Part shown: one piece after another, positions 1,235 to 16,872 of the stretch
How positions within the stretch are numbered: position 1 is the first letter of the stretch
Layout of the letters: every line of letters begins with the position of its first letter
From: Candidatus Iainarchaeum sp.
Lineage (GTDB): Archaea > Iainarchaeota > Iainarchaeia > Iainarchaeales > JAZDFD01
Direction: 5' to 3'
Length of the DNA: 16,872 nucleotides
Assembly: GCA_043808155.1 (NCBI GenBank)
Contig: JAZDFD010000009.1
Location: forward strand, 1 to 16,872
The notes under the pieces: model-generated
What the model saw: the letters and a program-made list of their open reading frames with translations, nothing else
Databases searched by the model: none
Told to the model about the DNA's origin: nothing
Program-made: the position numbers and the translations under genes

Positions 1235-1242
1235 GTGTTTTC

Positions 1243-1608
1243 GTGAGTTTTACAAAAGGTCAGGTTTCAGTAGAAACAATGGCAGTCGTAGGCATAATTC
1301 TTTTGTTATTTGCAATTGTAAGTACAACAGTTGCATATAGAAATATACAATCTCAAATAATTGAAGAAAATTATAATGAATTTAATTCATGTTCTGAAAT
1401 CAGCATGCTTATTACAAATTCATATTCGCATGGTCCAAAAAGCGAAATATTTGTAACATCTGCTTTGGATATGATTGTTCAGGAAAATGAAGTTCATGTT
1501 GGCAGTAATTATTGTCATGTTACTGGTAAAGTATCTGATGCTACTTTAGTTGCAGGAATTATAAGAATAAAAAACATTAATGGAGTTGTGCAACTTGAGA
1601 ACGTCTAG
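1243..1608 (+). CDS. Minor type IV pilin-like protein (class III signal peptide)
   Basis: GTG start after an AGGTG SD. TKG/QVSVETMAVVGIILLLFAIV matches the QXSXE motif. Confidence 0.85.
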   Translation: MSFTKGQVSVETMAVVGIILLLFAIVSTTVAYRNIQSQIIEENYNEFNSCSEISMLITNSYSHGPKSEIFVTSALDMIVQENEVHVGSNYCHVTGKVSDATLVAGIIRIKNINGVVQLENV

Positions 1609-2083
1609 AGGCCAGATTTCAGCATATGATTTCATGATTGCAATGTTCTTATTTTTGCTGATGTTTATTACATTGAACAGTGTCTGGACTGGTATTTATA
1701 GTTCAGTGGTTGAAAATCAAATCCAGACTCAAATGCATGATTCATCTTACAAAGCACTTGAAGTTTTGATTAAAACTAAAGGCTATCCTGCTAACTGGGA
1801 AGATGACCCTTCAAATGCAGAATCAATAGGCCTTGCAAAACGTAAAAATGTTTTTGATGATGATAAAGTTACTGCATTTAAATCAATGGATTATGATTTA
1901 TCCAAAGAATTGATGGGGTTAGGTCTGTTTGAATATTATTTGGATGTTGATTCTTTCGGAACTGCTAATGACTTTACTAAAGGAATTTCATTACCCACCG
2001 ACAAAGACATATATAGTGCATCAAGAATTGTAAACTACAAAGGAGCTGAAGCAGTTGTTACACTTTATGTATTCCAAAACTAA
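1595..2083 (+). CDS. Minor type IV pilin-like protein
   Basis: SRG/QISAYDFMIAMFLFLLMF signal, plus an LIKTKGYPANWE motif of the kind seen in archaeal pilin-like proteins. The likely start is TTG 1595 after GGAG (1582-1585); the ORF track start is 1580. Confidence 0.8.
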   Translation: MRTSRGQISAYDFMIAMFLFLLMFITLNSVWTGIYSSVVENQIQTQMHDSSYKALEVLIKTKGYPANWEDDPSNAESIGLAKRKNVFDDDKVTAFKSMDYDLSKELMGLGLFEYYLDVDSFGTANDFTKGISLPTDKDIYSASRIVNYKGAEAVVTLYVFQN

Positions 2084-4400
2084 AAATAACAAAGGATTTG
2101 TGCTTACAGTTGATGCAATTATGGCACTTCTAATTGTTGTTGCCTTTCTTCTCATAACGCAAATTCAGCCTTATGATTCTGAACCATACATTGCAAAGCT
2201 TTCAACTAACGAAAGAGCAGCTGATCTTTTCATATCACTTGATGAAAATGGTTTTCTTACTGGTGTAATGGATGAAAACCTAACTGCTGATTTGAAAATG
2301 GATACAATTTACAACAAAATGCTTTCAGTAGTTCCCTCTAATATGGATTTTCGAATTGAACTTACGCGTTATGATGCAAATGAATTAAACTGCAGGCTTA
2401 ATCCTTATTTTGATGGCTGTTTCACATTAGTTGACATTTATCCTGAAAGAGGAACAGCCATACCAACTGACAAAGATCTAATAAGCGGAGCAACAACATT
2501 TATGAGAGGCCAGCCACCCGGGCAGTGTGAAATTGCAGAAGTTGAATTTGCAGATGAATTTTCTTATGCACCAGAGAATGAACGGCTTTTATTTAATGCG
2601 ATATCAGAAACTGACCGGCTTTCATTCAGTGCTGAACCATACACACTTTTCTTTGCAGAAGGTGACTTAAACTTTTTATTTTCTGTTGACGTTACTCCCT
2701 CAGACGAACTTGAATGTGATGAAGAGTTAAGAGTTGATTTAACTTTAGAAGTTACGGCAGAAGGCGGGCGTGCACCGCTTGACATGATGTTAGTGCTTGA
2801 CAGAACTGAAAGCATGGAAGACTGTGTTGTTGCAGATGGGACTATTGAAACATATGAAGTAAATGTAACTGCACTTGACTGGGAACTTGTTGATACAATT
2901 GATTTAACTAGTGCAGATGCATTTGATGTTTTGATTGAATGGACTGACTCATGTTCTTTAGCAAACTGTCCAAAGATGTACATCGAATCTCCAAGTTTAG
3001 ATCATTATGGTTTTGGATACAGTACTACAAATGCATATGAATGCCATACATCCGGAGCTGTTAATTATTACGAAGATGACAGTTTCAGTTATATTGCAGT
3101 TCCATCAAATATGTCGGAAGTTGGAACATGGAATGTTTATGTAAAAAAGAATAATCCCCAAATAAGTTATGCTTTAACCACGAAATTTATTGATGCGCCT
3201 TTATCAAAACTTGAATCAATGAAAACTGAAAGTGTTAATTTTATTTATAATGCAGAATGGCAGCCAGATGATCAGATTGGTTATGTTTCATTTGAAAGGC
3301 GTGCAAAGAAAGAAAGCCCTCTTCCCTCAAGCAGAGGCGCTGTACAAAATAAAATTCAAAACACAACAACATCCGGAACTGAAAACACTGCAATGGGTGA
3401 CGGAATTGATGTTGCAAATGGTGAGTTAACCGGCCCTCAGGCACAGGATGACGCTTTAAAATTTGAAATTCTTTTAAGTGATGGTGAAACAACAATTGGA
3501 ATGAGCAGTGAAGATGCTGCAAACGATGCTGCTGATAATAACATTTCAATATTTACAATTGCTTTTGGTCCTGATGCAAATCAAATGGAAATGCAGAATA
3601 TTGCAGACATTACTGGCGGGGAAATGTACTATGCAAAAGATGAAAATGCACTGAAAGAAGTTTATGAAATAATTGCACAAAAAATAGGGCTTGAAGCACA
3701 GAGTGCCGCATCTGCTAAAGCATATGATGCAAATGCTACTGTTCCTCTGCCACTACACTCATTTTTAGTTGACCCTGGTTCAGGTGTATTTGAGGAGGGA
3801 ACCGACAGAAATTATTTGTTTTATAACATTGGCACTGTAACTGTTGCTGATCCTTGGGAAGGTTATTTTATAGTTACGTTTCCCTGCGACAATGATTTTT
3901 CATGTGAAAATGATGTAAAATATTTTCCCGAAGAACCATTTTATGTTTATTATTACGATGATTTAGGGATTCCACAAGACCCTGTACTGTGGGATGGCAA
4001 TTTTGAAATAACTTTCCTTTATCGCGATTTGACAGTTGATTTTATTTCAGGTGAAATCAGAGGCTATTCTGAAATTTATTTGGATTTGAATGCAATAAAT
4101 TCCGGATTTTTAGATACTGGTGCAACTACTGTTGAACTTTATTATGATGATGTTTATACTGGCGAATACATTACAGACAGAAGTGTTGTTCCCATGTGCG
4201 GAATGTTTAGTTCGGGATGTGATAATTATTTCCAGGTTTTCAATGAACTTTTTATTGAAAATGGGGGACACATATTGGCAATAATTAACAAAGACAAATC
4301 AATCAAAGAATGCCCTGGTAATAACATTGCAGAAATTTATTGTTATGTAACTCCGAGAACACAATTTTATATTTTAAAATATTGGTTGTGGTATAAGTGA
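2067..4400 (+). CDS. Large pilin-like adhesin with a vWA domain and a C-terminal CARDB/Ig-like region
   Basis: NNKG/FVLTVDAIMALLIVVAFLL class III signal. vWA motifs: LDMMLVLDRTESM, DQIGYVSF, NTAMGDGI, ILLSDGE, IFTIAFG, IADITGG. CARDB-like DLTVD...INSG...TVELYYD...IKECPGNN. Likely start ATG 2067; the ORF track start is 2055. Confidence 0.85.
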   Translation: MYSKTKNNKGFVLTVDAIMALLIVVAFLLITQIQPYDSEPYIAKLSTNERAADLFISLDENGFLTGVMDENLTADLKMDTIYNKMLSVVPSNMDFRIELTRYDANELNCRLNPYFDGCFTLVDIYPERGTAIPTDKDLISGATTFMRGQPPGQCEIAEVEFADEFSYAPENERLLFNAISETDRLSFSAEPYTLFFAEGDLNFLFSVDVTPSDELECDEELRVDLTLEVTAEGGRAPLDMMLVLDRTESMEDCVVADGTIETYEVNVTALDWELVDTIDLTSADAFDVLIEWTDSCSLANCPKMYIESPSLDHYGFGYSTTNAYECHTSGAVNYYEDDSFSYIAVPSNMSEVGTWNVYVKKNNPQISYALTTKFIDAPLSKLESMKTESVNFIYNAEWQPDDQIGYVSFERRAKKESPLPSSRGAVQNKIQNTTTSGTENTAMGDGIDVANGELTGPQAQDDALKFEILLSDGETTIGMSSEDAANDAADNNISIFTIAFGPDANQMEMQNIADITGGEMYYAKDENALKEVYEIIAQKIGLEAQSAASAKAYDANATVPLPLHSFLVDPGSGVFEEGTDRNYLFYNIGTVTVADPWEGYFIVTFPCDNDFSCENDVKYFPEEPFYVYYYDDLGIPQDPVLWDGNFEITFLYRDLTVDFISGEIRGYSEIYLDLNAINSGFLDTGATTVELYYDDVYTGEYITDRSVVPMCGMFSSGCDNYFQVFNELFIENGGHILAIINKDKSIKECPGNNIAEIYCYVTPRTQFYILKYWLWYK

Positions 4401-5386
4401 ATAACAAAGGCATTTTGTTTACATTAATGGTGCTTTTAATCACATTAAGTTTACTCACGTTTATTTCAGTAGTTGAAAATGGGATGGGTGAATCTCAGCA
4501 GCTTGGTTATGTAACAAATTTTTTGAGAGTCGCGGAAAAATTCAGCAATATTGAACGAAATGTAATCAGACTTGATAAAACTGAACCAATTACAAATCTG
4601 AGTGAAAGAGTTTTGCCATTTATTTATGTTGTTGATGACAGAACATTAACTGTTACTCAGGAATTGCCTTTGAAAGAATCTGATTTCAATTCATTTTATG
4701 ATACAATAAATATTTATGAAATTTTTGAAGAAGATCAAAACTACAATTATGCATACACTGGAATTGATGTGTCAATTGACACGCTTAAAAATCCTCTTTG
4801 GGGCGGAATCAGTAATGAACTTGTTTTTTTAGTTGATCCTTTCTGTTTCCAATTTAAAGAATCAGGATTAGATTTTATGAGTGTGGGTGGGTCGACACAT
4901 GAGAAATGTATAGACACATTTGACTTTGATACAGTTAAAAGATTTGATCTTAATGTGAATATTGTGCAGTTCGCGGAAGATTATAATACAATCACATGCA
5001 ATTCAGGGCCTTGTGATGGTGCTGGATGGCATCAAGAGTTTGAAGGGAGTAGTATTTGGCCATATTTTGAAATTGAAATTATTGATACTGAATGCGGTCA
5101 TTGTGATTTCCCTACTGCAAATAAGGTAATTAGCGGACATTATAATCCCGCGCTTAATTATGAGATTGAAATTTCATGTACTGGCGCTTCTTGCGTGTCA
5201 GACCCAATAACACTAACCAGTTTGGGGGGTATTACTGCAGAACATGAGTCCAATGAAAGGATTATTATTGAACTCAAAACTGAGTTTTACGATGACATTG
5301 ATAAATTTTATTTCCCTGACTTTGATATGAATGTAACTGAGTCAGATTTCAATATCTTTATTACTAACATAAGTGGTTTTAGTTAA
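4397..5386 (+). CDS. Pilin-like protein with an acidic, Cys-rich extracellular domain
   Basis: GTG start overlaps the upstream stop. NNKG/ILFTLMVLLITLSLL class III-type signal. Several Cys pairs in the C-terminal half. Confidence 0.8.
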   Translation: MNNKGILFTLMVLLITLSLLTFISVVENGMGESQQLGYVTNFLRVAEKFSNIERNVIRLDKTEPITNLSERVLPFIYVVDDRTLTVTQELPLKESDFNSFYDTINIYEIFEEDQNYNYAYTGIDVSIDTLKNPLWGGISNELVFLVDPFCFQFKESGLDFMSVGGSTHEKCIDTFDFDTVKRFDLNVNIVQFAEDYNTITCNSGPCDGAGWHQEFEGSSIWPYFEIEIIDTECGHCDFPTANKVISGHYNPALNYEIEISCTGASCVSDPITLTSLGGITAEHESNERIIIELKTEFYDDIDKFYFPDFDMNVTESDFNIFITNISGFS

Positions 5387-5439
5387 AGTAAGTAATATAT
5401 AGATGTAAAAATATATGATAATGGTACAGGTTTTGAAGA

Positions 5440-7236
5440 ATGACAACAAGGCAAAAACCAAAAGAACAAGTTGAAATAATAGGGATTTACCTAGGCGGGG
5501 GGCCAAAACTCACAACAAGTCACCAAATGCCCCCGCCCAAGAAAGATGGCTTATTCACAAGACTGCTAAAAGCACTGCATCTTGTACCCAGTAGTTCTGT
5601 TATGAAGACACGTGAACTGACAAAAAAGCGAGTTCTTGAACGAAAGGAACAAAAGCGTAAACTAAAGCAAGTTACTGACAAAACAAAGGCAAAAGAGCAA
5701 AAACTGAAAAACTTAAAAAGAAACCTTGACAAAAACAGAATTCTTAAAACAGATGACAAAGAAGACGTCACTTTACTTATCCGTGATGATTTAAAAACAA
5801 AGCCAACAAAACCCACTGCAAATACAGTTCTGTCAACAAAAATCCATGCTGGTAAACTCGGAGTAATGGAAAAAGAAAAAGTTTCAGAATCTGAAAAAAA
5901 TGAAAGAATTAAAAAAATTGAGCGTGATTATGACAGAATATCCAAAAAGATTGGCGATTTGGAGAATAAAGAAGCAAACAAAACATTAAATTCTGATGAA
6001 ATTTCAGAAAAGAAAGAACTTATTCAGAGTTTAAGAGCATTAAGACTTGAAATGCGTCTGCTTGGAAAAAGCATAGACTCGAAAATGCAAATACCTCAAC
6101 AAATAATTCAGCAACCAGTACCGCAGTTACCCGTAGTTGTAACTAAAACAAAAGAACAGGACGCAAATGAAATAAAAAAAATGATGTCTGCTCTGCGTTA
6201 TGAATATTATAAAAGAAGAATAAGTGAGACAGAATACAAATCAAGACTTTTTGAATATCAGACTAAGTTAAGGTCTTTGGGATTTACTATCCCTAAAGAA
6301 TTAAAATTTGAAAAACCAATAAAAGAAGAACAGAAGATAACTGCGGTTACTCAACCAAAAATACACCCACACCCAATAACACACCCAAAAGCACATCACA
6401 AAGATCAACCAGTAGCACGTCACAAAGTACAGCCAACAGAAAAAACAAAAGAGCCAATAACACAACTAGCAGCACACCCAAAAGGACAACCGCAAACGCT
6501 TTCAGTTAGGGAGCTAAAAGTTGATAAACTGGAAATCGCGCAACCTATTCAGAATCTAAATGACTCTGTAAAGCCAAAAGAAACACCATATGACAAAATG
6601 GAAATGCTTATTGCAGGCACTGGCGACAATTCTAAAAGTTCTAAAATATCCGACAGCAAAATAGGTCAAATGCTCAGAGAAAGACCTTTTGAAAAAATTG
6701 ATCATAAAAGAGTTGCAGAACTCGAAACACATGTTAAAGGTTTGATGAAACGACATGAAATTTCCGAATCAACAATTTCCGATGTTGGTGCAGTTGATAA
6801 AAATAAAATTATTGAAGATTTTGATAAGTTAATCAATTTAATTGATCTTGAAAAACACACCAAAGATCTTATGCGGGAAGAACACAAATCATCACATGAT
6901 GATAAAATTGAAATGACTAATTTAATGCCTGTAACTTCTGGTGACTCTCATAAAAAAGATCAAATCAAATCAATTGCAAAAGAAATAATCAAATACAAAA
7001 TCGTTACTGATTTTGATAATGTTTTACAATATGTTAAATCACATGGAAAAGTATCTGAAAATCAATTAGTTAAAGATCTGAAAATAGACAGAAAAAGACT
7101 TCATGCTGCAACTGAAGTTCTTGAAAATAATGAATTAATAAAAATTGAATACCCTCCGTTTGGGTCTGCAATAATCTATGATGCTGCTTACAAAAAACCA
7201 GAAAAGGAAAAAAAGAATAAAAAGAAGGGGAGTTGA
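5440..7236 (+). CDS. Cytoplasmic Lys-rich coiled-coil protein with a C-terminal winged-helix-like domain, pilus-associated
   Basis: 598 aa with no transmembrane segment and coiled-coil-like K/E heptads. SHOCT-like LRYEYYKRRISETEYK. The C-terminus IVTDFDNVLQYVKSHGKVSENQLVKDLKIDRKRLHAATEVLENNELIKIEYP has a wHTH pattern. Its stop overlaps the ATPase start. Confidence 0.7.
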   Translation: MTTRQKPKEQVEIIGIYLGGGPKLTTSHQMPPPKKDGLFTRLLKALHLVPSSSVMKTRELTKKRVLERKEQKRKLKQVTDKTKAKEQKLKNLKRNLDKNRILKTDDKEDVTLLIRDDLKTKPTKPTANTVLSTKIHAGKLGVMEKEKVSESEKNERIKKIERDYDRISKKIGDLENKEANKTLNSDEISEKKELIQSLRALRLEMRLLGKSIDSKMQIPQQIIQQPVPQLPVVVTKTKEQDANEIKKMMSALRYEYYKRRISETEYKSRLFEYQTKLRSLGFTIPKELKFEKPIKEEQKITAVTQPKIHPHPITHPKAHHKDQPVARHKVQPTEKTKEPITQLAAHPKGQPQTLSVRELKVDKLEIAQPIQNLNDSVKPKETPYDKMEMLIAGTGDNSKSSKISDSKIGQMLRERPFEKIDHKRVAELETHVKGLMKRHEISESTISDVGAVDKNKIIEDFDKLINLIDLEKHTKDLMREEHKSSHDDKIEMTNLMPVTSGDSHKKDQIKSIAKEIIKYKIVTDFDNVLQYVKSHGKVSENQLVKDLKIDRKRLHAATEVLENNELIKIEYPPFGSAIIYDAAYKKPEKEKKNKKKGS

Positions 7237-8807
7237 ATCAAATGAAGGATAAACTTGAATTGAGTGATATTCAAATTAATTCTGACGTTAACAAAGAAAA
7301 AGTAAAACAAAAAGTTGTTGAAACATATGAAATTGAAGCAGATGGTGTTTCAATTGAAGTAAGTATTATTGAAAAAAAGGAACTTTTTGTAAGAGAATAT
7401 TATCTGAATTTTCCTGAGTATGGTGAAGGAACAAAAGCACTGCTAAAAAATCTAAAATCAAGTATCATCACAGAGTCAACACTCAAAACAGAGAAAATGC
7501 TTGACCCCAATTTTATTATAACTTTAAAAAAGAAATTTTCTGACAGGTCAATGTCAATACTTTCAAAAGAAATGCCTAACATGGATGATAAAACAAAGAA
7601 GATGCTTACAGGAATTTTAATTCATGAAATGCTGGGCCTGGGGAAACTTGAATTCTTACTTAATGACAGTAATCTGGAAGAAATGGTAATCAACCAGAGT
7701 CATGAACCAGTCTGGGTTTATCATAAAAAATACGGCTGGTTAAGAACTAACATATACGTAACGCCTGAAGAAGAAATAGTAAACTACGCAAGTATAATTG
7801 CGCGTAGAATTGGAAAACAGATTACTACTTTGGCGCCTTTATTAGACGCTCATTTAATCACCGGAGACCGTGCAAATGCCACTCTTTTTCCTATTTCAAC
7901 TAAAGGAAATACAATCACTATCCGTAAGTTCAGGCGTGATCCATGGACTGTTACAGACCTCATAAAAAACGGTACCACAAGTGCTGATTTGATGTCTTTG
8001 ATATGGCTTGCCATAGAATATGAGCTCAATATTATCTTTTCCGGTGGTACAGCATCAGGTAAAACAACTATGCTTGGTTCATGCCTGCCCTTTATACAGC
8101 CAAATCACAGAATAATTTCAATTGAGGACACACGTGAACTTCAGGCACCTGATTATCTTCACTGGGTACCCTTAACCACAAGAGAACCAAATCCAGAAGG
8201 CAAGGGCGGAGTTTCAATGTTAGATTTGCTTGTGAATTCATTGAGAATGCGTCCTGACAGAGTAATGGTTGGTGAAGTAAGAAGACAGAGAGAAGCAGAG
8301 GTAATGTTTGAAGCAATGCACACAGGTCACTCTGTTTACACAACAGTGCACGCAAACACTGCAGATGAAACAATTAGAAGATTAATCAACCCGCCAATTT
8401 CAATTGCACCGTCAATGCTTGATTCTGTACATTTGAATGTTGTAATGTTCCGAAACAGAAGAATTGGTGCAAGACGTGTTCTTCAGGTTGCTGAATTCAT
8501 TCCTGAAAAAAGAGGTGCAGATGAAGAAAGAATAAAACCAAATGTGATTTACAGATGGAGACCTGCTGATGATGTCATAAGTAAACACAGTGAAAGTGTA
8601 AGATTATTTGATGAATTAGCACTGCATACTGGACTGACATCAGAAGAAATAAACCGCGAACTCAAAAAGAAAAAACAAATCCTTGAATGGATGGTTAAAT
8701 ATGATGTACGCGGCATTGAAAAAGTAGGAAAAACAATGGCTGAATATTATATGGATGCTGACAATGTTTTCAGTTATGTGGAGAAAGATAAAAAACCAAA
8801 TTTTTAA
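7233..8807 (+). CDS. Type IV pilus / T2SS assembly ATPase (VirB11/CpaF/TadA/ArlI family)
   Basis: Walker A GGTASGKTT, Asp box SIEDTREL, LRMRPDRVMVGEVR (Walker B) and His box MHTGHSVYTTVHA. Confidence 0.95.
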   Translation: MNQMKDKLELSDIQINSDVNKEKVKQKVVETYEIEADGVSIEVSIIEKKELFVREYYLNFPEYGEGTKALLKNLKSSIITESTLKTEKMLDPNFIITLKKKFSDRSMSILSKEMPNMDDKTKKMLTGILIHEMLGLGKLEFLLNDSNLEEMVINQSHEPVWVYHKKYGWLRTNIYVTPEEEIVNYASIIARRIGKQITTLAPLLDAHLITGDRANATLFPISTKGNTITIRKFRRDPWTVTDLIKNGTTSADLMSLIWLAIEYELNIIFSGGTASGKTTMLGSCLPFIQPNHRIISIEDTRELQAPDYLHWVPLTTREPNPEGKGGVSMLDLLVNSLRMRPDRVMVGEVRRQREAEVMFEAMHTGHSVYTTVHANTADETIRRLINPPISIAPSMLDSVHLNVVMFRNRRIGARRVLQVAEFIPEKRGADEERIKPNVIYRWRPADDVISKHSESVRLFDELALHTGLTSEEINRELKKKKQILEWMVKYDVRGIEKVGKTMAEYYMDADNVFSYVEKDKKPNF

Positions 8808-8818
8808 GTGATGGAAGA

Positions 8819-9709
8819 ATGATGTCTAAATTAACAATTCCGTTTTCACCTTTACCATATCCTGTAATTGAAAAACTAAGCAATCCCTTTCTTGGTTTAG
8901 GTGCGGGACTTTCCAAAGCCCTGCCTTATTTGGAAATGGAATTAATTCAGGCGAAATTTGATGTTGATCCTAAGAGATACGCATCTGTAATGATTTTTTT
9001 AGGTATTGTGTACTTTATTTTCTTTTTTGGTTTCATTGCCTTAGTTTTAAGCAGATTTACTGAATTGTATTTGCTTTTAGCATTTACAATTAGTGCAGTT
9101 TTGTCATTCATGATTTTTATGCAGATTTCATTGTATCCCAAGATGGTTGTAAAAAAGAAAATACGTGATCTTGAAAGGAATTTGATTTTTGCTCTGCGTA
9201 CAATGTTAATTCAGATAAAAAGCGGAGTAAGTCTTTTTGATTCAATGACCACAATTGCTAATGGGGATTATGGTGCATTATCTGCAGAATTCAAAGGTGC
9301 AATTGATGAAATAAACACAGGCACTATAGAAGAGTTTGCTCTTCAGAAATTAGCCACTAACAATCCCTCACTTTATTTCAGAAAAGCAATATGGCAGATT
9401 GTAAATGGTATGAAAGCAGGTGCAGATGTAAGCACTGTCCTTACTGAAAGTGTTGCTACCATGGGCAGGGAGCAGAAAATTGCAATAAACACGTATGGGA
9501 ACCAGCTCAAAGTTTTTTCACTGATTTACATGATGATTGGTGTGATTGTCCCTGCTTTGGGTTTAACTTTTTTGATTGTATTAGGCAGTTTCCCTCAGGT
9601 TGAAATCGGGGAAAACCTTTTTTGGGCATTAATCGGTTTTGTTGGAGTTGCTCAATTCATGTATATTGGAATGATAAAAAGTAAAAGACCAAACATAATG
9701 AGTGCGTGA
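8819..9709 (+). CDS. Type II secretion system F-family (TadB/TadC/ArlJ-like) membrane platform protein
   Basis: Four TM-like segments. NLIFALRTMLIQIKSGVSL...YGALSAEF pattern. Directly follows the ATPase. Confidence 0.9.
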   Translation: MMSKLTIPFSPLPYPVIEKLSNPFLGLGAGLSKALPYLEMELIQAKFDVDPKRYASVMIFLGIVYFIFFFGFIALVLSRFTELYLLLAFTISAVLSFMIFMQISLYPKMVVKKKIRDLERNLIFALRTMLIQIKSGVSLFDSMTTIANGDYGALSAEFKGAIDEINTGTIEEFALQKLATNNPSLYFRKAIWQIVNGMKAGADVSTVLTESVATMGREQKIAINTYGNQLKVFSLIYMMIGVIVPALGLTFLIVLGSFPQVEIGENLFWALIGFVGVAQFMYIGMIKSKRPNIMSA

Positions 9710-10718
9710 TGATGTGATTTACAGACGAATTTCAGCGTTCCTCCCAAAACCATTTTTGGAATGGCTTGCAAGAGAAATTGAATTTTCAGGTGTAAGCATA
9801 GAGGAAAAGAGCTTTGCTGGGTTTTTAGTTCTGTTTTCACTTGCAATAAGTTCATCAACTGCATTAATTGCTTACTCGCTCATGAATCTTTCATTTGCAC
9901 TTGTGATTTTTGTTGCTGCATTGGTTCTTTCAATGGGTGGACTTCTTTTCTGGTTAAATCAGGTTGCAGAAAGTAAAGGTAAATTTGTTGAAAAAATACT
10001 CCCTGATGTATTACAGCTTATTGCCTCAAACATAAAAGCAGGGCTAACAACTGAAAGAAGTCTTTTTGTTTCTGCAAGACCTGAGTTCGGGCCTTTAACA
10101 GTTGAACTTAAGACTGCAAGTAAAAACATTATTGCAGGTGAGAGAATTGAAAGAGCATTGCTCGGAATTCCTAAAAAAATAAAATCAAAAGTTCTTGAAC
10201 GAACATTGTGGTTATTGTCAGAAGGAATAAAGAACGGAGGGCAGATTGCTGATTTGCTTCTTGAATTAGGTAATGATTTACGTGAAGAAAACACAGTAAA
10301 AGCAGAAATCAAATCCAACATATCCATGTATATAATTCTGATTTTTATAGCTGCTGCTTTTGGTGCGCCTATGCTTTTTGGAGTAAGCAGTTTTATTGTT
10401 GGTATTTTAGAGGAACAGATGGGTACTGTTGATTTAGATGCTGAGTCTCTGAAATCAATGCAGAGGGGTTCGCCATTAGGCAATATGATGGGTGTTCCAA
10501 CTGCATCTGTTGGTGAAGACTTTGTTGTTGGTTTTGTCGGAGTGTGTATTGTAATAACTGCGATATTTGCAGGCCTAACCATCGGCGTAATTAACAGCGG
10601 AAAGGAAAAAGACGGAATAAAGTACATACCACTTGTTTTGTTAATTTCATTTGTATTGTTTTATTTAGTCCGTGCAGTTTTAGAAGTTGCATTCGGAAGT
10701 TTGTTCTTGTATCTATAA
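9702..10718 (+). CDS. Type II secretion system F-family (TadC-like) membrane platform protein
   Basis: LPDVLQLIASNIKAGLTTE...FGPLTVEL...GGQIADLL motif and multiple TM segments. Overlaps the preceding paralog. Confidence 0.9.
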   Translation: MRDDVIYRRISAFLPKPFLEWLAREIEFSGVSIEEKSFAGFLVLFSLAISSSTALIAYSLMNLSFALVIFVAALVLSMGGLLFWLNQVAESKGKFVEKILPDVLQLIASNIKAGLTTERSLFVSARPEFGPLTVELKTASKNIIAGERIERALLGIPKKIKSKVLERTLWLLSEGIKNGGQIADLLLELGNDLREENTVKAEIKSNISMYIILIFIAAAFGAPMLFGVSSFIVGILEEQMGTVDLDAESLKSMQRGSPLGNMMGVPTASVGEDFVVGFVGVCIVITAIFAGLTIGVINSGKEKDGIKYIPLVLLISFVLFYLVRAVLEVAFGSLFLYL

Positions 10719-10760
10719 TTAGTAATCAATTTCCACAGTTAAGTCTAATTCTAAATAATA

Positions 10761-10780
10761 AAATAAAGAAAAAGAAAAAA
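10761..10780 (-). terminator. Oligo-T archaeal terminator of the major pilin gene
   Basis: The minus strand reads TTTTTTCTTTTTCTTTATTT, about 20 nt after the stop at 10799. Confidence 0.55.
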
Positions 10781-10798
10781 GTAAGAAACTGCTTAAAT

Positions 10799-11239
10799 TT
10801 AAGCTGCAGTTCCTGTGCATGTTAATGTTGCGTTGTGTGTTATTCCGCCTGTGCCTCTAATGTAAGTTAATGCAACTTCACCGCGGTATGTTGAACCTGT
10901 GCCTACACCTGTTGGTGACTCAATCGTAGTTTCGGCTCCTGAAACAACTGATGCTGGCAATGTTGGTGCTGTGGGTGTTCCCGTAAACCCATTCTGCATA
11001 GTGATTGCAGTTATTGAAATTGTTTGTCCTGCACCATTCTGAACTTTCAGGTCTATTCCTCCTGAAGCATCAACTGCATGGTCTACATAGATGATCTGTG
11101 TGTTGTCTGAAGTACAGTTTGAACCTGCTGTTGTTGTACTCATAATAAATACAAGAACACCAATTACAATTGCAATTACAATCAATGCCCAACCATAGGT
11201 CATCAGGTATTCCAAAGCGGATTGTCCTTTTCTTTCCAT
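10799..11239 (-). CDS. Probable major type IV pilin
   Basis: MERKG/QSALEYLMTYGWALIVIAIVIGVL class III signal, Thr/Gly-rich globular domain with two Cys. Strong GGAGG SD (11246-11250) and its own promoter and terminator. Confidence 0.9.
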   Translation of the reverse strand: MERKGQSALEYLMTYGWALIVIAIVIGVLVFIMSTTTAGSNCTSDNTQIIYVDHAVDASGGIDLKVQNGAGQTISITAITMQNGFTGTPTAPTLPASVVSGAETTIESPTGVGTGSTYRGEVALTYIRGTGGITHNATLTCTGTAA

Positions 11240-11353
11240 ATTATTCCTCCTTTTTAAGTATTTTAGTTATTTAATTTATTTAATAGTATAAATGTTTATG
11301 TGGTTTAAAAAGCTTACCATTCAGGATATATTTCTTTGGTTTTCAAGGGAGAG

Positions 11354-11950
11354 TTATTTTGGCATGAATTTCTTCTTCAGAGCGGATTCAACATTCTTTG
11401 GAACGAAGTTTGAAACATCCCCTTTCAGAGAGCCAACCTCTTTCACTAGTGAAGAACTTAAGAAAAAGTACTCTGCAGAGGTCATAACAAACACGGAATC
11501 TATGTCAGGATTTAATTTTCTGTTTGTAACCGCAGACTGAAATTCAGCTTCAAAATCAGATAATGCACGTAAGCCACGAAGAACAAATTTCACATTTTTT
11601 TTATCCATATAATCTACTAAAAGCCCAGAGAAAGAATCAACTTTGATGTTTTTCATATCTTTAGTTGCTATTTTAATCATTGAGACTCGTTCATTTAGAG
11701 AAAACAGGGTTTTTTTCTCATGGTGTGTTCCAACTGCAATAATAATCTCATCAAACAATTCAGATGCTCTTTCAAGAACATTTATGTGCCCATTAGTTAC
11801 TGGGTCAAAGGAACCTGCGTAAACCGCGATTTTTTTATTATTGGTTTTAGTGCCTGCTTTGGCAGTATTTTTTTTACCGACAAAATTTTTCTTATTGTCT
11901 TTTTTTCCCATACTGGCTTTTTTATTTTGTTTTTTCATGCTAACACTCAT
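11354..11950 (-). CDS. coaD: Pantetheine-phosphate adenylyltransferase, bacterial type
   Basis: IAVYAGSFDPVTNGH, LFSLNERVSMI, FSGLLVDY, LRGLRALSDFEAEFQ and FLSSSLVKEV are the canonical bacterial CoaD motifs. The exact start is uncertain because of a Lys-rich N-terminal extension. Confidence 0.95.
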   Translation of the reverse strand: MSVSMKKQNKKASMGKKDNKKNFVGKKNTAKAGTKTNNKKIAVYAGSFDPVTNGHINVLERASELFDEIIIAVGTHHEKKTLFSLNERVSMIKIATKDMKNIKVDSFSGLLVDYMDKKNVKFVLRGLRALSDFEAEFQSAVTNRKLNPDIDSVFVMTSAEYFFLSSSLVKEVGSLKGDVSNFVPKNVESALKKKFMPK

Positions 11951-12530
11951 TTATTAGTTCTGAGCAAATCTTTTTAATCTGTGTTCTGAGCGTATTTTTG
12001 TTTTTTGAGTTATTGATTACAAAATCTGCTTTTTTTGTTTTTTTTGAAATTCCCATCTGAGAATCTAATCTTTCAAGTATTTCTTTTTCTGAAAAGCCTT
12101 TTTTCAGGAGTCTTTCAACACACATTTTCTTGGACAATTCAACAACCACAATTTTATTGAATTTTTTTTCAAGCTTCGCTTCAAATAAAAGAGGCACTTC
12201 AACAAAAACAATCTTTTTTTTCTTTTTTTTAAGTTTTGTCATTCTTTGTTCAAGTTTTTTTATCTGAAGATTCATTTCCTTAAGCGCAGGCGCATGTAAA
12301 ATTAGTTCGAGTTTTCTTTTTTTTACAGGACTGGAAAAAATAACTTCTGAAAGCTTTTGTTTGTTCACAGTGCCAAAACCCTTCAATATTTTCTCTTTGA
12401 TTTTGTTATCCCTGTACAGTTTGGATACTATTCTGTCAAGATTTATTACTGGAAAACCTTCGTCTTTGAAATATTCCAAAGCAGTGCTTTTCCCGCTGCC
12501 AAAACACCCGGTAACCCCTACTTTAAGCAT
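11940..12530 (-). CDS. coaE: Dephospho-CoA kinase, bacterial/eukaryotic ATP-dependent type
   Basis: MLKVGVTGCFGSGKST (P-loop), LELILH, VEVPLLFE, RLDSQM and ADFVINNS motifs. Likely start ATG 12530; the ORF-track start 12593 would overlap the divergent gene. Confidence 0.92.
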   Translation of the reverse strand: MLKVGVTGCFGSGKSTALEYFKDEGFPVINLDRIVSKLYRDNKIKEKILKGFGTVNKQKLSEVIFSSPVKKRKLELILHAPALKEMNLQIKKLEQRMTKLKKKKKKIVFVEVPLLFEAKLEKKFNKIVVVELSKKMCVERLLKKGFSEKEILERLDSQMGISKKTKKADFVINNSKNKNTLRTQIKKICSELINEC

Positions 12531-12551
12531 AATTGAATAACCCTGCTTTTG

Positions 12552-12559
12552 TTTAAATA
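12552..12559. promoter_or_regulatory. Single palindromic TATA element (TTTAAA) between divergent genes
   Basis: TTTAAATA lies 23-30 nt upstream of ATG 12582 (+). The same TTTAAA lies 22-27 nt upstream of the coaE ATG 12530 (-). Confidence 0.5.
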
Positions 12560-12581
12560 ATCTTCTTTTCATAGTGTTTTT

Positions 12582-12884
12582 ATGAAATCTCATAATTTCA
12601 TTAAATTATTTTTAATTGTAATAATCCTGATGTTTATTATTTCTGCAGGAAGTATTTACGCAACTAAAAATACTGCAGGTTTCATTTCCTTTGCAAATGT
12701 TTCTTTTGTTGAAGGTGTAATTCCTAATGCAAATCCACTTATGTTTGTGTTTTTCCTTATGTTAATTGCTTTTACACTGGTTTCTTTTTTCACATGGGCA
12801 TCAAACCAAAATGTTATCGAAGAAGACGATTATGAGACTATGCATAATGGGGTTGAATTTTATAGGCCCAATAGGGATTTTTAG
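12582..12884 (+). CDS. Small hypothetical membrane protein (two hydrophobic segments, acidic C-terminal tail)
   Basis: 100 aa. Hydrophobic stretches FIKLFLIVIILMFIISAG and PLMFVFFLMLIAFTLVSFF, tail VIEEDDYETM. Correctly spaced TATA upstream. Confidence 0.65.
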   Translation: MKSHNFIKLFLIVIILMFIISAGSIYATKNTAGFISFANVSFVEGVIPNANPLMFVFFLMLIAFTLVSFFTWASNQNVIEEDDYETMHNGVEFYRPNRDF

Positions 12885-12932
12885 TTCGGAATTCTAACAC
12901 CTAAAAAATAACTACTACTTTAGCGTTGGTAT

Positions 12933-13178
12933 ATTCGGTGTGGTGGGGACTTCAAGTTGTTGACCCCTGTGGTTAACATCAGGATTTCTTCGGGAATCTA
13001 ACTTGAATTAACATCACGCCATTTCGCAATTATCTTCGGATTTTTGCGACGCAGACTATCTTCGGATTTTCTGTACGGCTTATATCTTCGGATATTTGCC
13101 ATGTAAGCGGAATGTGCAGTTAAACATAGATTCTTTGGAATTTTTTGTTTATTCTGTACTCCTTCCACTTACACGAGT
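12933..13178 (+). ncRNA. Candidate novel highly structured ncRNA with multiple C(UUCG)G hairpins
   Basis: Helices found by hand: 12937-12945/13012-13020; 12951-12958/13000-13007; 12959-12965/12971-12977; 12982-12988/12993-12999 (UUCG loop); hairpins 13024-13049, 13051-13074 and 13077-13100 (all UUCG loops); long interrupted hairpin 13102-13173 (UUUG loop). About eight G-U pairs versus one A-C mismatch on the + strand. Followed by an oligo-T tract. Confidence 0.75.
13031..13093 (+). repeat. Three exact copies of TATCTTCGGAT at a 26-nt period
   Basis: Copies at 13031-13041, 13057-13067 and 13083-13093, separated by two different 15-nt segments. Confidence 0.95.
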
Positions 13179-13189
13179 TTTTTCATTTT
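13178..13189 (+). terminator. Oligo-T tract ending the structured RNA
   Basis: TTTTTTCATTTT immediately after the last hairpin. A second T tract lies at 13241-13252. Confidence 0.5.
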
Positions 13190-13259
13190 ACAATTATAAT
13201 GATATTTCTAATGTGTTTAATCCCCCCTGCTTTGCTAAGCTTTTTTTGTTTTCAGAGTT

Positions 13260-13269
13260 AAACTTATAA
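13260..13269 (+). promoter_or_regulatory. Putative BRE/TATA promoter of the KaiC-like operon
   Basis: AAAC-TTATAA, with TTATAA 30-35 nt upstream of ATG 13299. Confidence 0.5.
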
Positions 13270-13298
13270 TCTGCTAGCGCCATATATTAACGATTTCA

Positions 13299-14096
13299 AT
13301 GGGTGGAAGGAAAATAGCTAAGGCGCAGGCTAAATTTAATGCACAAGATGAAAAAGAAATGAAGTTGCAGATAAAAGAATTAATTGCATTGGGTTCTGAC
13401 TTCAAGATGCCAAGAATCAAAAGCGGAGTTCAAGGTTTAGACGAACTTATGGAAGGTGGAGTGCCTGAAAGAAGTCTGGTTCTTGTTGCAGGTGACACTG
13501 GAACTGGTAAAAGCACATTAGCAATGAACTTTCTTGTTGAAGGTGCACAAAACAACGAACCTGGTGTTTATGTTACTCTGGAAGAATCTGCGTCTGAACA
13601 TGCATTAAGAATGAAATTATTTGGCTGGCCAATTGAAAATTTAATTGCAGAAAAGAAACTTGCATTTGTACAGCCCGAACTTTATGATTTTGATAAACTA
13701 ATTGTGAATATTGAAGATGCAGTCACAAGAATAGGCGCTAAACGCCTTGTGATTGATAGTATCTCAATTTTAAACATGTATTTTAAGGATCCTTTTAAAG
13801 TGAGACGAAGTCTTCTGACTCTTGAGAAAGCAGTTAAAAATCTGAACTGCACAACTTTTGTAATTGCTGAATTAAGGCAGATTGGCGGTAATATTCAGTT
13901 AACCGGAGTGGAAGAATTTTTAGTTGATGGTATTATACTTCTTCATTATATTAAAAAAGAAAATGTTTATAGTCGTGCAATGGTTATAAGAAAAATGCGG
14001 GCAACAAATCATTCTCTTAAGATTCATCCTATGCAGATTAAACGGCCTGGCGGGGTAATTATCTATCCTGAAGAAGAAGTATTTACTGAACTTTAA
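13299..14096 (+). CDS. Single-domain KaiC/RAD55/GvpD-family RecA-superfamily ATPase
   Basis: IKSGVQGLDELMEGGVPERSLVLVAGDTGTGKST (Walker A), YVTLEE, RLVIDSIS (Walker B), VDGIILL and IRKMRATNH. Confidence 0.92.
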   Translation: MGGRKIAKAQAKFNAQDEKEMKLQIKELIALGSDFKMPRIKSGVQGLDELMEGGVPERSLVLVAGDTGTGKSTLAMNFLVEGAQNNEPGVYVTLEESASEHALRMKLFGWPIENLIAEKKLAFVQPELYDFDKLIVNIEDAVTRIGAKRLVIDSISILNMYFKDPFKVRRSLLTLEKAVKNLNCTTFVIAELRQIGGNIQLTGVEEFLVDGIILLHYIKKENVYSRAMVIRKMRATNHSLKIHPMQIKRPGGVIIYPEEEVFTEL

Positions 14097-14110
14097 TTTG
14101 GTGTTAAATC

Positions 14111-14869
14111 GTGCCTAATAAAATAATTGAACCTACACAAAATGATAATCCTACAGCAACAACATCCAAAAAAGTTGAAGCTAAAAAAGTAAAAACCGGA
14201 GTTCACGGTTTGGATGATATTTTAAATGGCGGGATCCCTGTTGGAAATCTTGTTGTTGTTTCGGGAGAACCTGGTGCAGGAAAAACCATAATGTGTCTGG
14301 AATATCTTTATAGAGGTATTACTGATTTTGATGAACCAGGGGTTTATGTGAGTCTAGAAGAATCACCAGACGATATTGTAAAAACCGCAGCACAATTTGG
14401 TTGGGATATGATGCCGCTTGTGAAAAAAGGAAAACTTGCGATTCTTACAATTGAGCTTTATGATTTTGATAAACTGAGAAATACTATTGAAGATGTAGTT
14501 GAGAAAATCGGTGCAAAACGTCTTGTGATTGACCCTGGTGTTATTTTCAGATTGTTTTTTGAAAAAGAACTTGATGCAAGAAAAAGAATTTTAAGTCTTG
14601 GAAAAATGCTGAAAAAAATCGGATGTACTGCAATAATCACAAATGAAATAAGTCTTGATAAAATGTCATCTCTTTTTGGTTTGGAAGAATATATTGCAGA
14701 TGGTGTAATACTTCTGTATCACACTAAATTAGAAGACAGATTTGTAAGAAGTGCGGGAATTCTGAAAATGCGTGGCACTAAAATAAGCGAAAAATTGCAT
14801 CCTGTGAGAATCGATTCAGATGGACTTAAAATACTTTCAAAGCAAGAACTTTTTCAGGATATAAAGTGA
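14111..14869 (+). CDS. Second single-domain KaiC/RAD55-family ATPase
   Basis: GTG start after GGTG. VKTGVHGLDDILNGGIPVGNLVVVSGEPGAGKT, YVSLEE, RLVIDPG, ADGVILL and LKMRGT. Confidence 0.92.
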   Translation: MPNKIIEPTQNDNPTATTSKKVEAKKVKTGVHGLDDILNGGIPVGNLVVVSGEPGAGKTIMCLEYLYRGITDFDEPGVYVSLEESPDDIVKTAAQFGWDMMPLVKKGKLAILTIELYDFDKLRNTIEDVVEKIGAKRLVIDPGVIFRLFFEKELDARKRILSLGKMLKKIGCTAIITNEISLDKMSSLFGLEEYIADGVILLYHTKLEDRFVRSAGILKMRGTKISEKLHPVRIDSDGLKILSKQELFQDIK

Positions 14870-14873
14870 TATT

Positions 14874-15494
14874 ATGGGGAGTTTCAAACAGCAGAAAGAT
14901 GATGATGAGCTCTATGCACTTCTAAGGCCTGGAAGAGACATATATCTCAAAATTGCAGAGGTTATGAATAATACAAATCATGCATCAGTCATTCTGCTAA
15001 TTGAAAATATGTCTTACCATGCAGATACAAGAATTGAATTATTAAGATATTTGAAAAGTAATGAGTATGAGGGTGTTTATGTCACTCTGAATACGCCCAT
15101 TGCAAATCTAATTGATATTTTTGAAAAATCATCAATAAATATTGAAAATATCTACTTTATTGATGGGATTACAAAAACAACAGAATCTGAAATCATTGAA
15201 AGTGAACACTGCAGATATTTGGAGTCTCCGAGAGATGTTGTTGATTTGAGTTTTTTAATTGACGAATTCTTGAATAAAATTAAGCATCCTAAACGATTTG
15301 TTGTGATTGATTCAATTTCAACGTTAATGGTCTACAATAGCGAACAGGCAATAAAGCAATTCGCGCATTCTGTCACAGGGAAAATAAAATCAAAAAAAGC
15401 CAGTGGAGTAATAATTGCAAGTGATGATACTGATAAGGATGCGTTAAATTCAATTGCACACTTTTGCGATAAAACCCTGAAACTTTCAAACTAA
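14874..15494 (+). CDS. Inactivated KaiC-like ATPase-fold protein (DUF835/FlaH-like)
   Basis: Retains GVYVTLN, YFIDGIT, FVVIDSISTLMVYN and HFCDKTLKL, but the Walker A GxxxxGK is replaced by IENMSYHADT. Confidence 0.75.
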   Translation: MGSFKQQKDDDELYALLRPGRDIYLKIAEVMNNTNHASVILLIENMSYHADTRIELLRYLKSNEYEGVYVTLNTPIANLIDIFEKSSINIENIYFIDGITKTTESEIIESEHCRYLESPRDVVDLSFLIDEFLNKIKHPKRFVVIDSISTLMVYNSEQAIKQFAHSVTGKIKSKKASGVIIASDDTDKDALNSIAHFCDKTLKLSN

Positions 15495-15508
15495 AGTTAA
15501 CCTATTTA

Positions 15509-16828
15509 TTAATCAATAATATTAATTTCAAAACCCAAAATTGATTTCCCTGTTTCTTCAAGTTTGTTTTTTAATGAGGAAATGTTTTCTTCAGTTGTTT
15601 CGCAGTCTTCTTTTATTTTGCTAAGCGAAAAGCCCCTGTCTTCAATTTCTTTTTCTATCTGGTTTTTTTCCATTAATTTATTATTTATTTTTTCAGTTAT
15701 TGCGCTTTCTGATTCCTGTTTTTCAATTGCATGTATTTCTATTTCTAACTTATTTAATTCCCAGAACACATTTTCAAAGAAATCAAAATTGATTAATTCG
15801 TTAATTGCTGAAATTTTCTTTTCCTTTTCTTTGGAATCTTTGAAAGTGATTATGTCTAATTCAATTGCTTTAATGACTTCTGCAAGAATTGCTTTAAGGT
15901 TTTCCGCTTTCTGATCTGTTTTCAGAGCATAAAAAGAATTTGATAAATAATGTTTCAGGCTTTCTTTCAGTTCAGATGAAATAATTATTTCATTAATTTC
16001 TGTCAGTTTCTGAAATCTTTTAAGAGGTTTGTCCACGTTTGACATTAAATCAATAATTCTTGTTTTCAGGTTTTGCTTTTCTTTGTATAGTGCGGCTTTT
16101 CGTTCTTTTATTCCCTCGTATTCATCCATTTCTGGACTGGATTCAAGTTCTTCAATTTCATTCAGCAGTGATTTTTTGTTTTGCAACAAGGCATTTAGTT
16201 CATTAGTTAGTGTTTCCTTGTTTTTGTTGCATTCAAGCAGAATGCTTCTTTTTTCATTAATGAGATTACTAATTTGATTTGCTTCAATTGATAAAAATAC
16301 TGCATCGTTTTCCTCAAGATATTTTTTCATTTCCGAGAAATTTTCATTCAATTCTTTGAAATAATTGCCAATTTTACTTACATGTTCTTTCATCAGAATT
16401 CCTGTGTATGCTGTGTTTTTTACAATTCTTGAACTTTCATTGTTGAGTGTATTGTGTGCGTTAATACAATATTCTTTCATTGAAGACACGTCAATGTTAT
16501 TGGGAACCTCTATTTTGTCGATTAGTGCATTAACTTGTCTTATCATCTGTATTTTAGATGTGCCAACTACTTTTGTGATTCTTGCTCTGCCTTCAGGAAT
16601 TTCAGCATTTTCAATATCTTCTAATGATTTTCTCAGAACATTCAGAATATGTTTAATTTCTGAGGCTTTTGATGCAAAGTACTGGTTTGCCTGTTTTTCC
16701 TGCACAGATGAAGTTTTTTCAATTTTTGAAGACAATTCACTAATTTTTAGATTTTGGGTTTTTGGTTCTTTAGAACCCATAAAACTGAATATTTTTCCAA
16801 ACATCGCGAATAGTTTATCAAAAATCAT
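15509..16828 (-). CDS. Hypothetical long coiled-coil protein
   Basis: 439 aa, K/E/L/I-rich heptads, amphipathic N-terminus MIFDKLFAMFGKIFSFM and no catalytic motif. AAAGC-TTATTA promoter-like element at 16853-16863. Confidence 0.75.
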   Translation of the reverse strand: MIFDKLFAMFGKIFSFMGSKEPKTQNLKISELSSKIEKTSSVQEKQANQYFASKASEIKHILNVLRKSLEDIENAEIPEGRARITKVVGTSKIQMIRQVNALIDKIEVPNNIDVSSMKEYCINAHNTLNNESSRIVKNTAYTGILMKEHVSKIGNYFKELNENFSEMKKYLEENDAVFLSIEANQISNLINEKRSILLECNKNKETLTNELNALLQNKKSLLNEIEELESSPEMDEYEGIKERKAALYKEKQNLKTRIIDLMSNVDKPLKRFQKLTEINEIIISSELKESLKHYLSNSFYALKTDQKAENLKAILAEVIKAIELDIITFKDSKEKEKKISAINELINFDFFENVFWELNKLEIEIHAIEKQESESAITEKINNKLMEKNQIEKEIEDRGFSLSKIKEDCETTEENISSLKNKLEETGKSILGFEINIID

Positions 16829-16872
16829 GTTATAAATAATGGATTTAAATCATAATAAGCTTTCCTGTTTCA

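Follow-up and report, generated by a model that had tools for sequence, protein, structure and literature searches.

A small structured RNA gene, very probably of a new family, upstream of the KaiC-like genes in a DPANN archaeon

A structured RNA in the gap upstream of the KaiC-like genes

The window analyzed in this work is a stretch of 16,872 nucleotides (nt) from Candidatus Iainarchaeum sp. (GenBank assembly GCA_043808155.1, contig JAZDFD010000009.1, positions 1 to 16,872). It contains a gap of 414 nt between an open reading frame (ORF) of 100 amino acids (12582-12884) and the first KaiC-like ORF (13299-14096). For this gap, a preliminary description had proposed an almost fully base-paired RNA of about 245 nt. 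As laid out below, the gap very probably holds a genuine small RNA gene that stands on its own and belongs to a new family. To our knowledge, almost nothing is known about the noncoding RNAs of DPANN archaea with their tiny genomes.

To assess the fold, 12925-13190 was compared with dinucleotide shuffles. The plus strand had a minimum free energy (MFE) of -93.4 kcal/mol (z = -8.08), and none of 200 shuffles was as stable, whereas the minus strand gave -62.3 kcal/mol and z = -4.72. The near end-to-end fold of the gap was thereby confirmed, and the plus strand was again identified as the functional one. When 12937-13184 was folded alone, all helices of the preliminary description were reproduced, and 9 of the 86 pairs were G-U. 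Each sub-domain was also tested separately against 300 shuffles, none of which reached the native value; the z score was -4.4 for the core, -6.1 for a group of three hairpins, and -6.7 for a long hairpin. Of the five C(UUYG)G tetraloops seen earlier in the RNA (12937-13183), four have the sequence C(UUCG)G and the fifth is C(UUUG)G. With both strands of the 1.08-Mb genome included, the hexamer CTTCGG was counted 257 times; three copies of the 10-mer ATCTTCGGAT exist genome-wide, all within the RNA locus and spaced by 26 nt. The predicted elements of the RNA are the following.

12937-12945 paired with 13012-13020, plus strand: terminal helix P1 (fold, covariance model)
12946-12950 opposite 13008-13011, plus strand: purine-rich internal loop (fold)
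12951-12958 paired with 13000-13007, plus strand: helix P2 (fold, covariance model)
12959-12977, plus strand: hairpin HP1 (fold, covariance model)
12982-12999, plus strand: hairpin HP2 with a C(UUCG)G loop (fold, covariance model)
Within 12937-13020, plus strand: outer helices of the core, GGUGUGGUG/CAUCACGCC and UUCAAGUU/AACUUGAA (MFE fold)
Within 12937-13020, plus strand: hairpin stems of the core, GUUGACC/GGUUAAC and GGAUUUC/GGAAUCU (MFE fold)
13024-13049, 13051-13074, and 13077-13100, plus strand: three tandem hairpins with a period of 26 nt (MFE fold, z = -6.1)
13102-13173, plus strand: interrupted hairpin of 72 nt (MFE fold, z = -6.7)

It had also been suggested that AUUCG (12933-12937) pairs with CGAGU (13174-13178) and closes the whole RNA into one multiway junction. 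Part of this closure is drawn by the MFE fold when the flanks are included. The closure is nevertheless not supported: promoter geometry places the likely 5' end at G12937, contigs from two related DNA sequencing runs carry T>G at 12935 with no matching partner change listed, and a closure of this type was found in no homolog. A protein-coding reading of the stretch was rejected. The longest frames across the RNA comprise 57 (plus strand) and 56 (minus strand) amino acids and are not conserved in the homologs, and the substitutions are compensatory. As a separate observation, the 5' strand 12937-12949 contains four GG runs, 0-3 nt apart, which formally match a two-tier G-quadruplex pattern; this strand is paired in a covarying helix.

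The conserved unit is a three-way junction of 85 nt

Alignment of 18 copies of the RNA (see below for their distribution) revealed that the conserved unit of the family is a three-way junction of 85 nt (12937-13020 in the window, 85-95 nt across the family) rather than the whole 245 nt. Of the earlier claim of a unit of about 245 nt, the fold was retained; conservation across the family is limited to the core, the tail being lineage-specific. The window copy shows all features of the family, i.e. the GGUGU...ACRCC helix P1, the GGGRR loop, P2, two hairpins, an A/T box, and a T-tract. It scored 81.7 bits with the covariance model R3, of whose seed it is a part. The terminal helix is conserved in sequence (5' GGUGUGGUU / AAYCACRCC 3') and adjoins the purine-rich internal loop GGGRR. 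Across the 18 copies the invariant letters are 5' GGUGU-GGUUGGGRR, RRUUC...GAAYUC in the stem of HP2, and YC-ACRCC at the 3' side. They are thus located in P1, the G-rich loop, and the HP2 stem, and the junction linkers and hairpin loops are variable. Among the loop variants are UUCG, CUUG, UUUG, and GCAA, i.e. exchangeable stable tetraloops.

Covariation was evaluated in two ways. The first alignment was fitted to the model and comprised the 18 sequences that passed E = 1e-5; an antisense hit (L043) and two short divergent copies (L195 and L196) were left out. In this alignment 93.1% of the cells were paired, and both sides had changed in 23 of 31 pairs. The covariation score was 0.55 versus 0.265 ± 0.016 for shuffles, none of 500 reaching the observed value, and versus at most 0.148 for slid partners. 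The second alignment was made from the same sequences with MAFFT and RNAalifold and was not fitted to the model. It returned the same four helices, with compensatory pairs at 22 of 30 positions. Covariation among homologs, the lack of which would have counted against the preliminary description, was seen in both alignments.

Distribution of the core

BLASTN with 12900-13200 against 60 relatives yielded short chance matches, with the exception of two collinear pieces in G004. In that genome, the interval from coaE to a KaiC-like gene contains the first 85 nt of the window RNA again, with a T-tract after them. A loose pattern, GGTGTGGT...ACGCC, matched 41 of the 196 genomes of the order. Most of these matches were due to chance, as a control pattern was equally frequent, and three genomes (G004, G100, and G111) were accepted by eye; G100 and G111 were homologs added by this search. 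Three covariance models (R1, R2, and R3) were then built in succession and gave the following counts.

Sample of the order, model R1: 8 of 151 genomes matching
Sample of the class, model R2: 14 of 151 genomes matching
Sample of the order, model R3: 16 of 151 genomes matching
Sample of the phylum, model R3: 14 of 151 genomes matching
Family f20, model R2: 10 of 23 genomes matching
Family f27, model R2: 3 of 13 genomes matching

The union of these searches places the core in 18 genomes from six families of one DPANN order (f1, f5, f20, f27, f28, and f29), the best model, R3, having covered part of the 196 genomes of the order. By family, it was present in 1/3 genomes of f5, 10/23 of f20, 3/13 of f27, 2/2 of f28, and 1/1 of f29. 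Genomes of other orders were negative, both in the class sample searched with R2 (0/19) and in the phylum sample searched with R3 (0/11). A contig scan with an overly loose pattern returned at least 120 loci, mostly of high-GC bacterial origin. One true member, L143, emerged when R3 was applied to 100 of them (L154-L173 left out), and it represents the same stretch as L044. Among 51 pattern loci on viral contigs, two scored 26 and 20 bits with R3; the best, L241, was rejected as coding-like DNA with z = -1.1 relative to shuffles. The RNA was found at none of 13 metagenome loci with a KaiC2 homolog (E up to 0.01), several of whose contigs end before the relevant gap. Four f20 genomes keep the flanking genes, and the RNA is absent from the syntenic place, where the best model score was 11.5 bits with the filters off.

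Some copies depart from the canonical form. Short divergent copies lie next to coaD-coaE in family f27, at 1501-1687 of L196 (G100, contig C2; oriented so that the hits are on the plus strand) and at 1501-1581 of L195 (G097, contig C90). In these copies the terminal helix (GGUGU...ACACC) is retained along with an AGAAUUC-UUCG-GAAUU cap, but the first hairpin is absent or altered. G100 has two such short copies in tandem with another UUCG hairpin between them, and its canonical copy is located elsewhere. In G004, a second, strongly folding G+C-rich stretch of about 200 nt (L008, 1610-1810, minus strand) lies just upstream of the RNA copy, the 316-nt region having z = -7.4. It gave no Rfam match at E up to 10 (searched via L046) and could be a further RNA lacking annotation or an extension at the 5' side.

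Transcription signals

The regions flanking the 18 copies were inspected for signals of transcription, with the following result for the window.

12884-12898, plus strand: imperfect inverted repeat GTT...GAATTC...AAC upstream of the A/T box (read by eye)
12903-12911, plus strand: A/T-rich box AAAAAATAA, putative archaeal TATA box of the RNA gene (alignment of 18 upstream regions)
13178-13183, plus strand: T6 tract, likely transcription stop of the RNA gene (sequence)
13233-13270, plus strand: promoter-like box of the KaiC-like operon, CTAAGCTTTTTTTG...AGTTAAACTTATAATC (by eye)

Counted from the first G of the RNA, positions -29 to -24 were 94-100% A/T with the consensus TTTA.T, and an A/T box was present at -29 to -23 in 18 of 18 copies. 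This is the distance expected between an archaeal TATA box and the start site. The conserved geometry thus makes G12937 the likely 5' end of the RNA. Farther upstream, at about -55 to -38, most homologs carry a GGTTTG...CAAACC-type element, of which 12884-12898 is the window counterpart (alignment of the 18 loci, read by eye). It is a possible regulator site. This element (TTCGGAATTCTAAC) also resembles the 3' half of HP2 together with the start of the 3' strand of P2 (12990-13003, TTCGGGAATCTAAC); the likeness may be due to chance or mark the remnant of a duplicated copy.

Archaeal transcription stops at oligo-T tracts, and every copy is followed by a run of at least five T, either directly or past extra hairpins specific to the lineage. 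A scan for sigma-70 promoters and intrinsic terminators, which is not meaningful for an archaeon, reported one promoter-like and no terminator-like site, at or below the shuffle means of 2.0 and 0.4. Judged from the box and the T-tract, each copy would be a transcription unit of its own, and we hold with high confidence that the RNA is a separate gene and at the same time a member of a new family.

These signals bear on the alternative that had been offered to a selected noncoding RNA, namely a structured 3' untranslated region (UTR) of the upstream small membrane-protein gene (12582-12884). The RNA does begin on the same strand, 52 nt past the stop codon of that gene. However, the gene is missing from the 17 homologous loci, where other genes lie upstream, in divergent orientation in G004, G027, and G045, and the RNA keeps an A/T box of its own in all 18 copies. 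Of the two options, the noncoding RNA was therefore upheld, and the UTR is hardly credible.

Comparison with known RNA families

The window was searched against the 4227 families of Rfam 15, and no match was obtained at the gathering threshold. For 12850-13320 at E up to 10, three matches at chance level were seen, and 19 homologous loci gave eight weak matches, none at threshold. ARAGORN detected no tRNA or tmRNA gene in the window. The RNAs that a structured archaeal transcript might represent were found elsewhere in the genome: the signal recognition particle (SRP) RNA (RF01857) on contig C34 with 121.7 bits, the RNase P RNA (RF00373) on contig C26 with 123.9 bits, neither matching at the RNA locus, and 5S rRNA (RF00001) on contig C4. 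5S rRNA was located in all five member genomes tested (the window genome G000 and G111, G004, G028, and G019), and SRP RNA was likewise present elsewhere in the window genome and the four others. The earlier statements that the RNA lacks the diagnostic motifs of tRNA, 5S rRNA, RNase P RNA, and SRP RNA and that it may represent an undescribed class are both in agreement with these searches.

Guide RNAs were considered next. The C box (RUGAUGA) and the D box (CUGA) of C/D RNAs are both missing from 12937-13184. An H/ACA RNA consists of a hairpin with a large guide pocket, a kink-turn (k-turn) or k-loop, and an ACA just 3' of the basal stem. Here, ACA occurs solely at 12976, 13011, 13124, and 13171, the letters following P1 in the homologs are ACU, AUU, UUU, and CCU, and the internal loops measure 4-5 nt, so that this assignment was rejected. 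Inspection by eye revealed no paired GA/GA signature of a k-turn.

RAGATH-32 (RF02922) was the only Rfam model that matched more than one member at the same place. Letters are shared over the 5' GUGG..GG stretch and over a hairpin that has a CUUCGG cap and precedes UCUAA. The scores were 15.7 (window), 21.8 (G111), and 18.1 bits (G104), compared with a cut-off of 41.8 bits that was reached by 0/151 genomes of the order. Matches of 18-20 bits also occur in coding DNA, the RAGATH-32 model has no terminal helix, and its first hairpin is deleted in the alignment. Membership in RAGATH-32 was consequently rejected. The term RAGATH-32 was not found in a search of full texts as far as these were accessible, nor in the main text of PMC5737381.

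A terminal helix that closes a junction with two hairpins within about 90-120 nt is also the shape of 5S rRNA and of the SRP RNA Alu domain. The new RNA differs by a second helix and a G-rich loop between the terminal helix and the junction. A loop-loop contact as in Alu is not indicated because the hairpin loops vary, and both readings were dismissed on account of this variability and of the genes located elsewhere. Y RNAs share the pattern of a conserved terminal helix and internal loop as a protein site with a variable distal part. This reading was rejected too: the TROVE domain (PF05731) had no match in the window genome, which is 88% complete, and no Rfam Y RNA matched. The CsrB/RsmZ-type small RNAs of bacteria, which resemble the RNA as a functional analogy in their tandem hairpins ending in a terminator, have a GGA loop motif that is not present here; the hairpins of the new RNA are capped by UUCG, and their tandem repetition is confined to the window lineage. 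We know of no CsrA-type partner in archaea.

A very divergent member of a known family (RAGATH-32, an SRP-Alu-like or 5S-like junction, or a Y RNA) would account for the recurring sub-threshold matches in three members and for an outline common to several known RNAs. Given the cut-off missed throughout, the scores of similar height in coding DNA, the resident SRP, RNase P, and 5S RNAs, and the failure to find a TROVE protein or a tRNA, we consider it very unlikely. A search of the literature, as far as the texts were accessible, did not turn up a described RNA family of DPANN archaea or Iainarchaeota or a KaiC-linked archaeal small RNA. In all likelihood, the RNA is thus both a genuine gene and outside of the described families.

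The 3' extension of the window lineage

In the window, P1 is followed by AUUUCG instead of a T-tract. Since no T-tract directly follows the core, the gene runs on for 160 nt to the T6 tract. The first part of this extension is formed by the three tandem hairpins, each of which has a variable basal stem, a 2x2 internal loop of pyrimidines, and an AUC-UUCG-GAU cap. They share an identical core of 11 nt (TATCTTCGGAT), and their basal stems differ yet are complementary (CGCAA/UUGCG, CAGA/UCUG, and GGC/GCC), which, judged by the pairing, is covariation between paralogs. Tandem Repeats Finder reported nothing for 12900-13250, the stems of the period-26 hairpins having diverged too far. The long hairpin comprises the stems UGUAAG/CUUACA, GGAA/UUCC, GUGCAG/CUGUAC, and UAAACA/UGUUUA and the apex AGAUUC-UUUG-GAAUUU. 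The idea that it is a degenerate second copy of the core was abandoned, as its 16-nt apex alone matches the HP2 module, with 6.5 bits.

The 160-nt tail was not found in other families. It is kept in near relatives, the contigs of two DNA runs being 89-94% alike over the part that each reaches. The contig from run X2 (12902-13183) has 16 differences: the 35 nt preceding the RNA account for 7, and no more than 9 fall within the 247 nt of the RNA itself. The X3 contig, which ends at 13075, displays the same contrast as far as it extends. Wherever a listed difference of the run contigs lies in a stem, the pairing is kept. C13056>T in the X2, X3, and X5 contigs gives the loop of the second tandem hairpin (hairpin B) the U-U/U-U form of the other two hairpins, and A13128>G and A13130>G in X2 both turn an A-U pair of the long hairpin into G-U. 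No sequencing run contained half of the query words, and X1 covers 13245-13500 only. The X5 contig (159 nt) stems from an RNA library and bridges core and extension, covering only 12951-13108; its three listed changes in HP2 keep all pairs. It hints only weakly at expression of core and tail as one transcript, as DNA may be present in such a library. Taken together, the substitutions argue that the extension, seen only in the window lineage and its near relatives, is under selection.

Other members (G104, G027/G045, and G113) have different extra hairpins on the 3' side before their T-tract, and those of G027 and G045 differ from each other by compensatory changes. The family thus seems prone to carrying a variable extension at the 3' side.

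The RNA and the KaiC-like operon

The neighbors of the RNA in the window are listed below.

7233-8807, within the block 7233-11239: T2SSE ATPase (domain search)
8819-9709 and 9702-10718: two T2SSF membrane proteins (domain search)
10799-11239, minus strand: pilin-like gene, N terminus like a class III signal peptide (by eye)
11354-12593, minus strand: coaD-like gene (PF01467) and coaE (PF01121), between the pilin and KaiC genes
13299-14096 and 14111-14869, plus strand: KaiC-family ATPases, not part of the RNA (Pfam PF06745, E = 5.6e-62 and 3.9e-62)
14874-15494, plus strand: degenerate KaiC-like DUF7504 protein (PF24336, E = 3e-9)

Its predicted gene content identifies the window as a type IV filament locus: T2SSE, two T2SSF proteins, a pilin-like protein, and the KaiC-like proteins are encoded, together with a VWA-domain protein (side stretch 2055-4400). 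This gene order recurs in metagenome loci with or without coaD-coaE. The coaD-like gene and coaE occupy the same position in L175 and are missing at the corresponding place in L178 and L180, so that the gap hosting the RNA is a variable spot of the locus. By this comparison the filament locus contains an old gap in which the RNA is anchored.

A KaiC2-like gene follows the RNA directly and on the same strand in 11 of the 18 copies, which belong to four families, and a twelfth copy lies at a contig end. The linkage is not strict: in f28, coaE is kept upstream and a different gene is found downstream, and the main copy in f27 adjoins neither coaE nor a KaiC gene. In the metagenome KaiC2 loci whose contigs reach the gap, the pilin gene or coaE directly abuts the KaiC genes. 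The box at 13233-13270 resembles by eye the TTAGCTTTTTAAA.AAGTTAA box that precedes KaiC2 homologs with and without the RNA. In f20, that box is followed by TATAT and situated 60-100 nt before the KaiC2 start, again irrespective of the RNA (L255-L258 included). It is probably the promoter of the KaiC2 operon.

The frequent position in front of KaiC2 would fit a cis-acting leader, riboswitch-like or an attenuator, of the downstream operon. In all 11 KaiC-adjacent copies, however, a run of at least five T separates RNA and gene, and a promoter-like box was read by eye between them in f20, G111/G112, and the window. Other genes lie downstream of the RNA in f27 and f28; conversely, KaiC2 with the same promoter-like box lacked the RNA in all four f20 genomes examined, and the 13 metagenome KaiC2 loci, only part of which reach far enough upstream, were without it. 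Moreover, the junction nucleotides, the usual site of ligand pockets, are not conserved. A leader is hence distinctly improbable.

The same adjacency could indicate that the three KaiC/RecA-fold paralogs next to the RNA, which would form a ring ATPase, have it as their dedicated partner (a cofactor, a substrate, or a regulator). A comparable ring is that of Elp4/5/6 in Elongator, which binds tRNA, and weak Pfam echoes of the PAXNEB/Elp4 type were seen below the cut-off. With such a partner, the repeated hairpins of the window lineage would load several rings or subunits. The operon occurs without the RNA, though, and the RNA without an adjoining operon, and we regard this possibility as improbable. 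If it held, an RNA-loaded KaiC-like machine would operate in the type IV filament locus of a DPANN archaeon.

Possible mode of action

Conservation is concentrated in the terminal helix, the purine loop, and one hairpin stem, as would be typical of an RNA recognized by protein rather than of one with a ligand pocket or an extended antisense seed. We therefore propose, tentatively, that the RNA is a trans-acting molecule serving as a rigid scaffold or decoy for protein binding. The gene would extend from 12937 to about 13183 (plus strand) and give rise to a stable, independently transcribed, structured small RNA. Candidate recognition sites are the invariant terminal helix with the G-rich loop and the RRUUC/GAAYUC hairpin. 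The rest of the molecule would serve as a rigid frame capped by exchangeable stable tetraloops, and the repeated hairpins of the extension would supply additional binding sites. That the gene is new is very probable; the complete statement, which includes the scaffold or decoy mechanism, has in our estimate somewhat less than an even chance.

A trans-acting small RNA that works by base pairing was weighed against the scaffold or decoy. The GGGRR loop, or the 5' strand after opening of P1, would pair with C/U-rich target sites, and the hairpins would merely stabilize the molecule. Such a function agrees with the independence of the gene, whose promoter is conserved, possibly regulated, and preceded by an inverted repeat, with the patchy and dispensable occurrence typical of regulators, and with a conserved unpaired purine run. 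Nevertheless, about five conserved single-stranded nt are too few to specify or predict targets, and the remaining conserved sequence is locked in a GC-rich helix of 9 bp. Base pairing is accordingly rated as unlikely, although it is the chief rival of the scaffold or decoy.

Several points weigh against our proposal of a new RNA gene with a scaffold or decoy function. The alignment behind the figure of 23 of 31 pairs had been fitted to the model, the kinship of the 18 genomes makes the counts overstate their independence, and the E-values of our own covariance models are rough. The family is patchy in distribution, and the RNA is dispensable, since four f20 genomes keep the flanking genes without it. 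The scaffold or decoy role itself is deduced from the pattern of conservation. C(UUCG)G caps are usually structural elements rather than protein sites, and the conserved terminal helix could reflect a constraint at the transcription start or a processing signal.

An RNA that is supported by covariation, bears a promoter, and is kept in several families is unlikely to be idle, and one lineage has even enlarged it with repeated hairpins. It provides a handle that could lead to an RNA-protein complex or a regulatory circuit in organisms not yet grown alone, and its model can be used for Rfam-style annotation in an archaeal blind spot. Its newness means that it belongs to no known RNA family; the mode of action may prove familiar.

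Observations in related gaps

Two related situations were noted in other genomes. In L044 (G019), two ORFs of 150 and 353 amino acids (1676-3087) lie directly downstream of the RNA and take the position of the KaiC gene; on visual inspection, they resemble an IS200/IS605-like pair of tnpA and tnpB transposase genes. In L257 (G110) and L258 (G101), the gap before KaiC2 lacks the RNA and holds other repeated hairpin-forming sequences, with a unit of about 45 nt occurring twice in G110.

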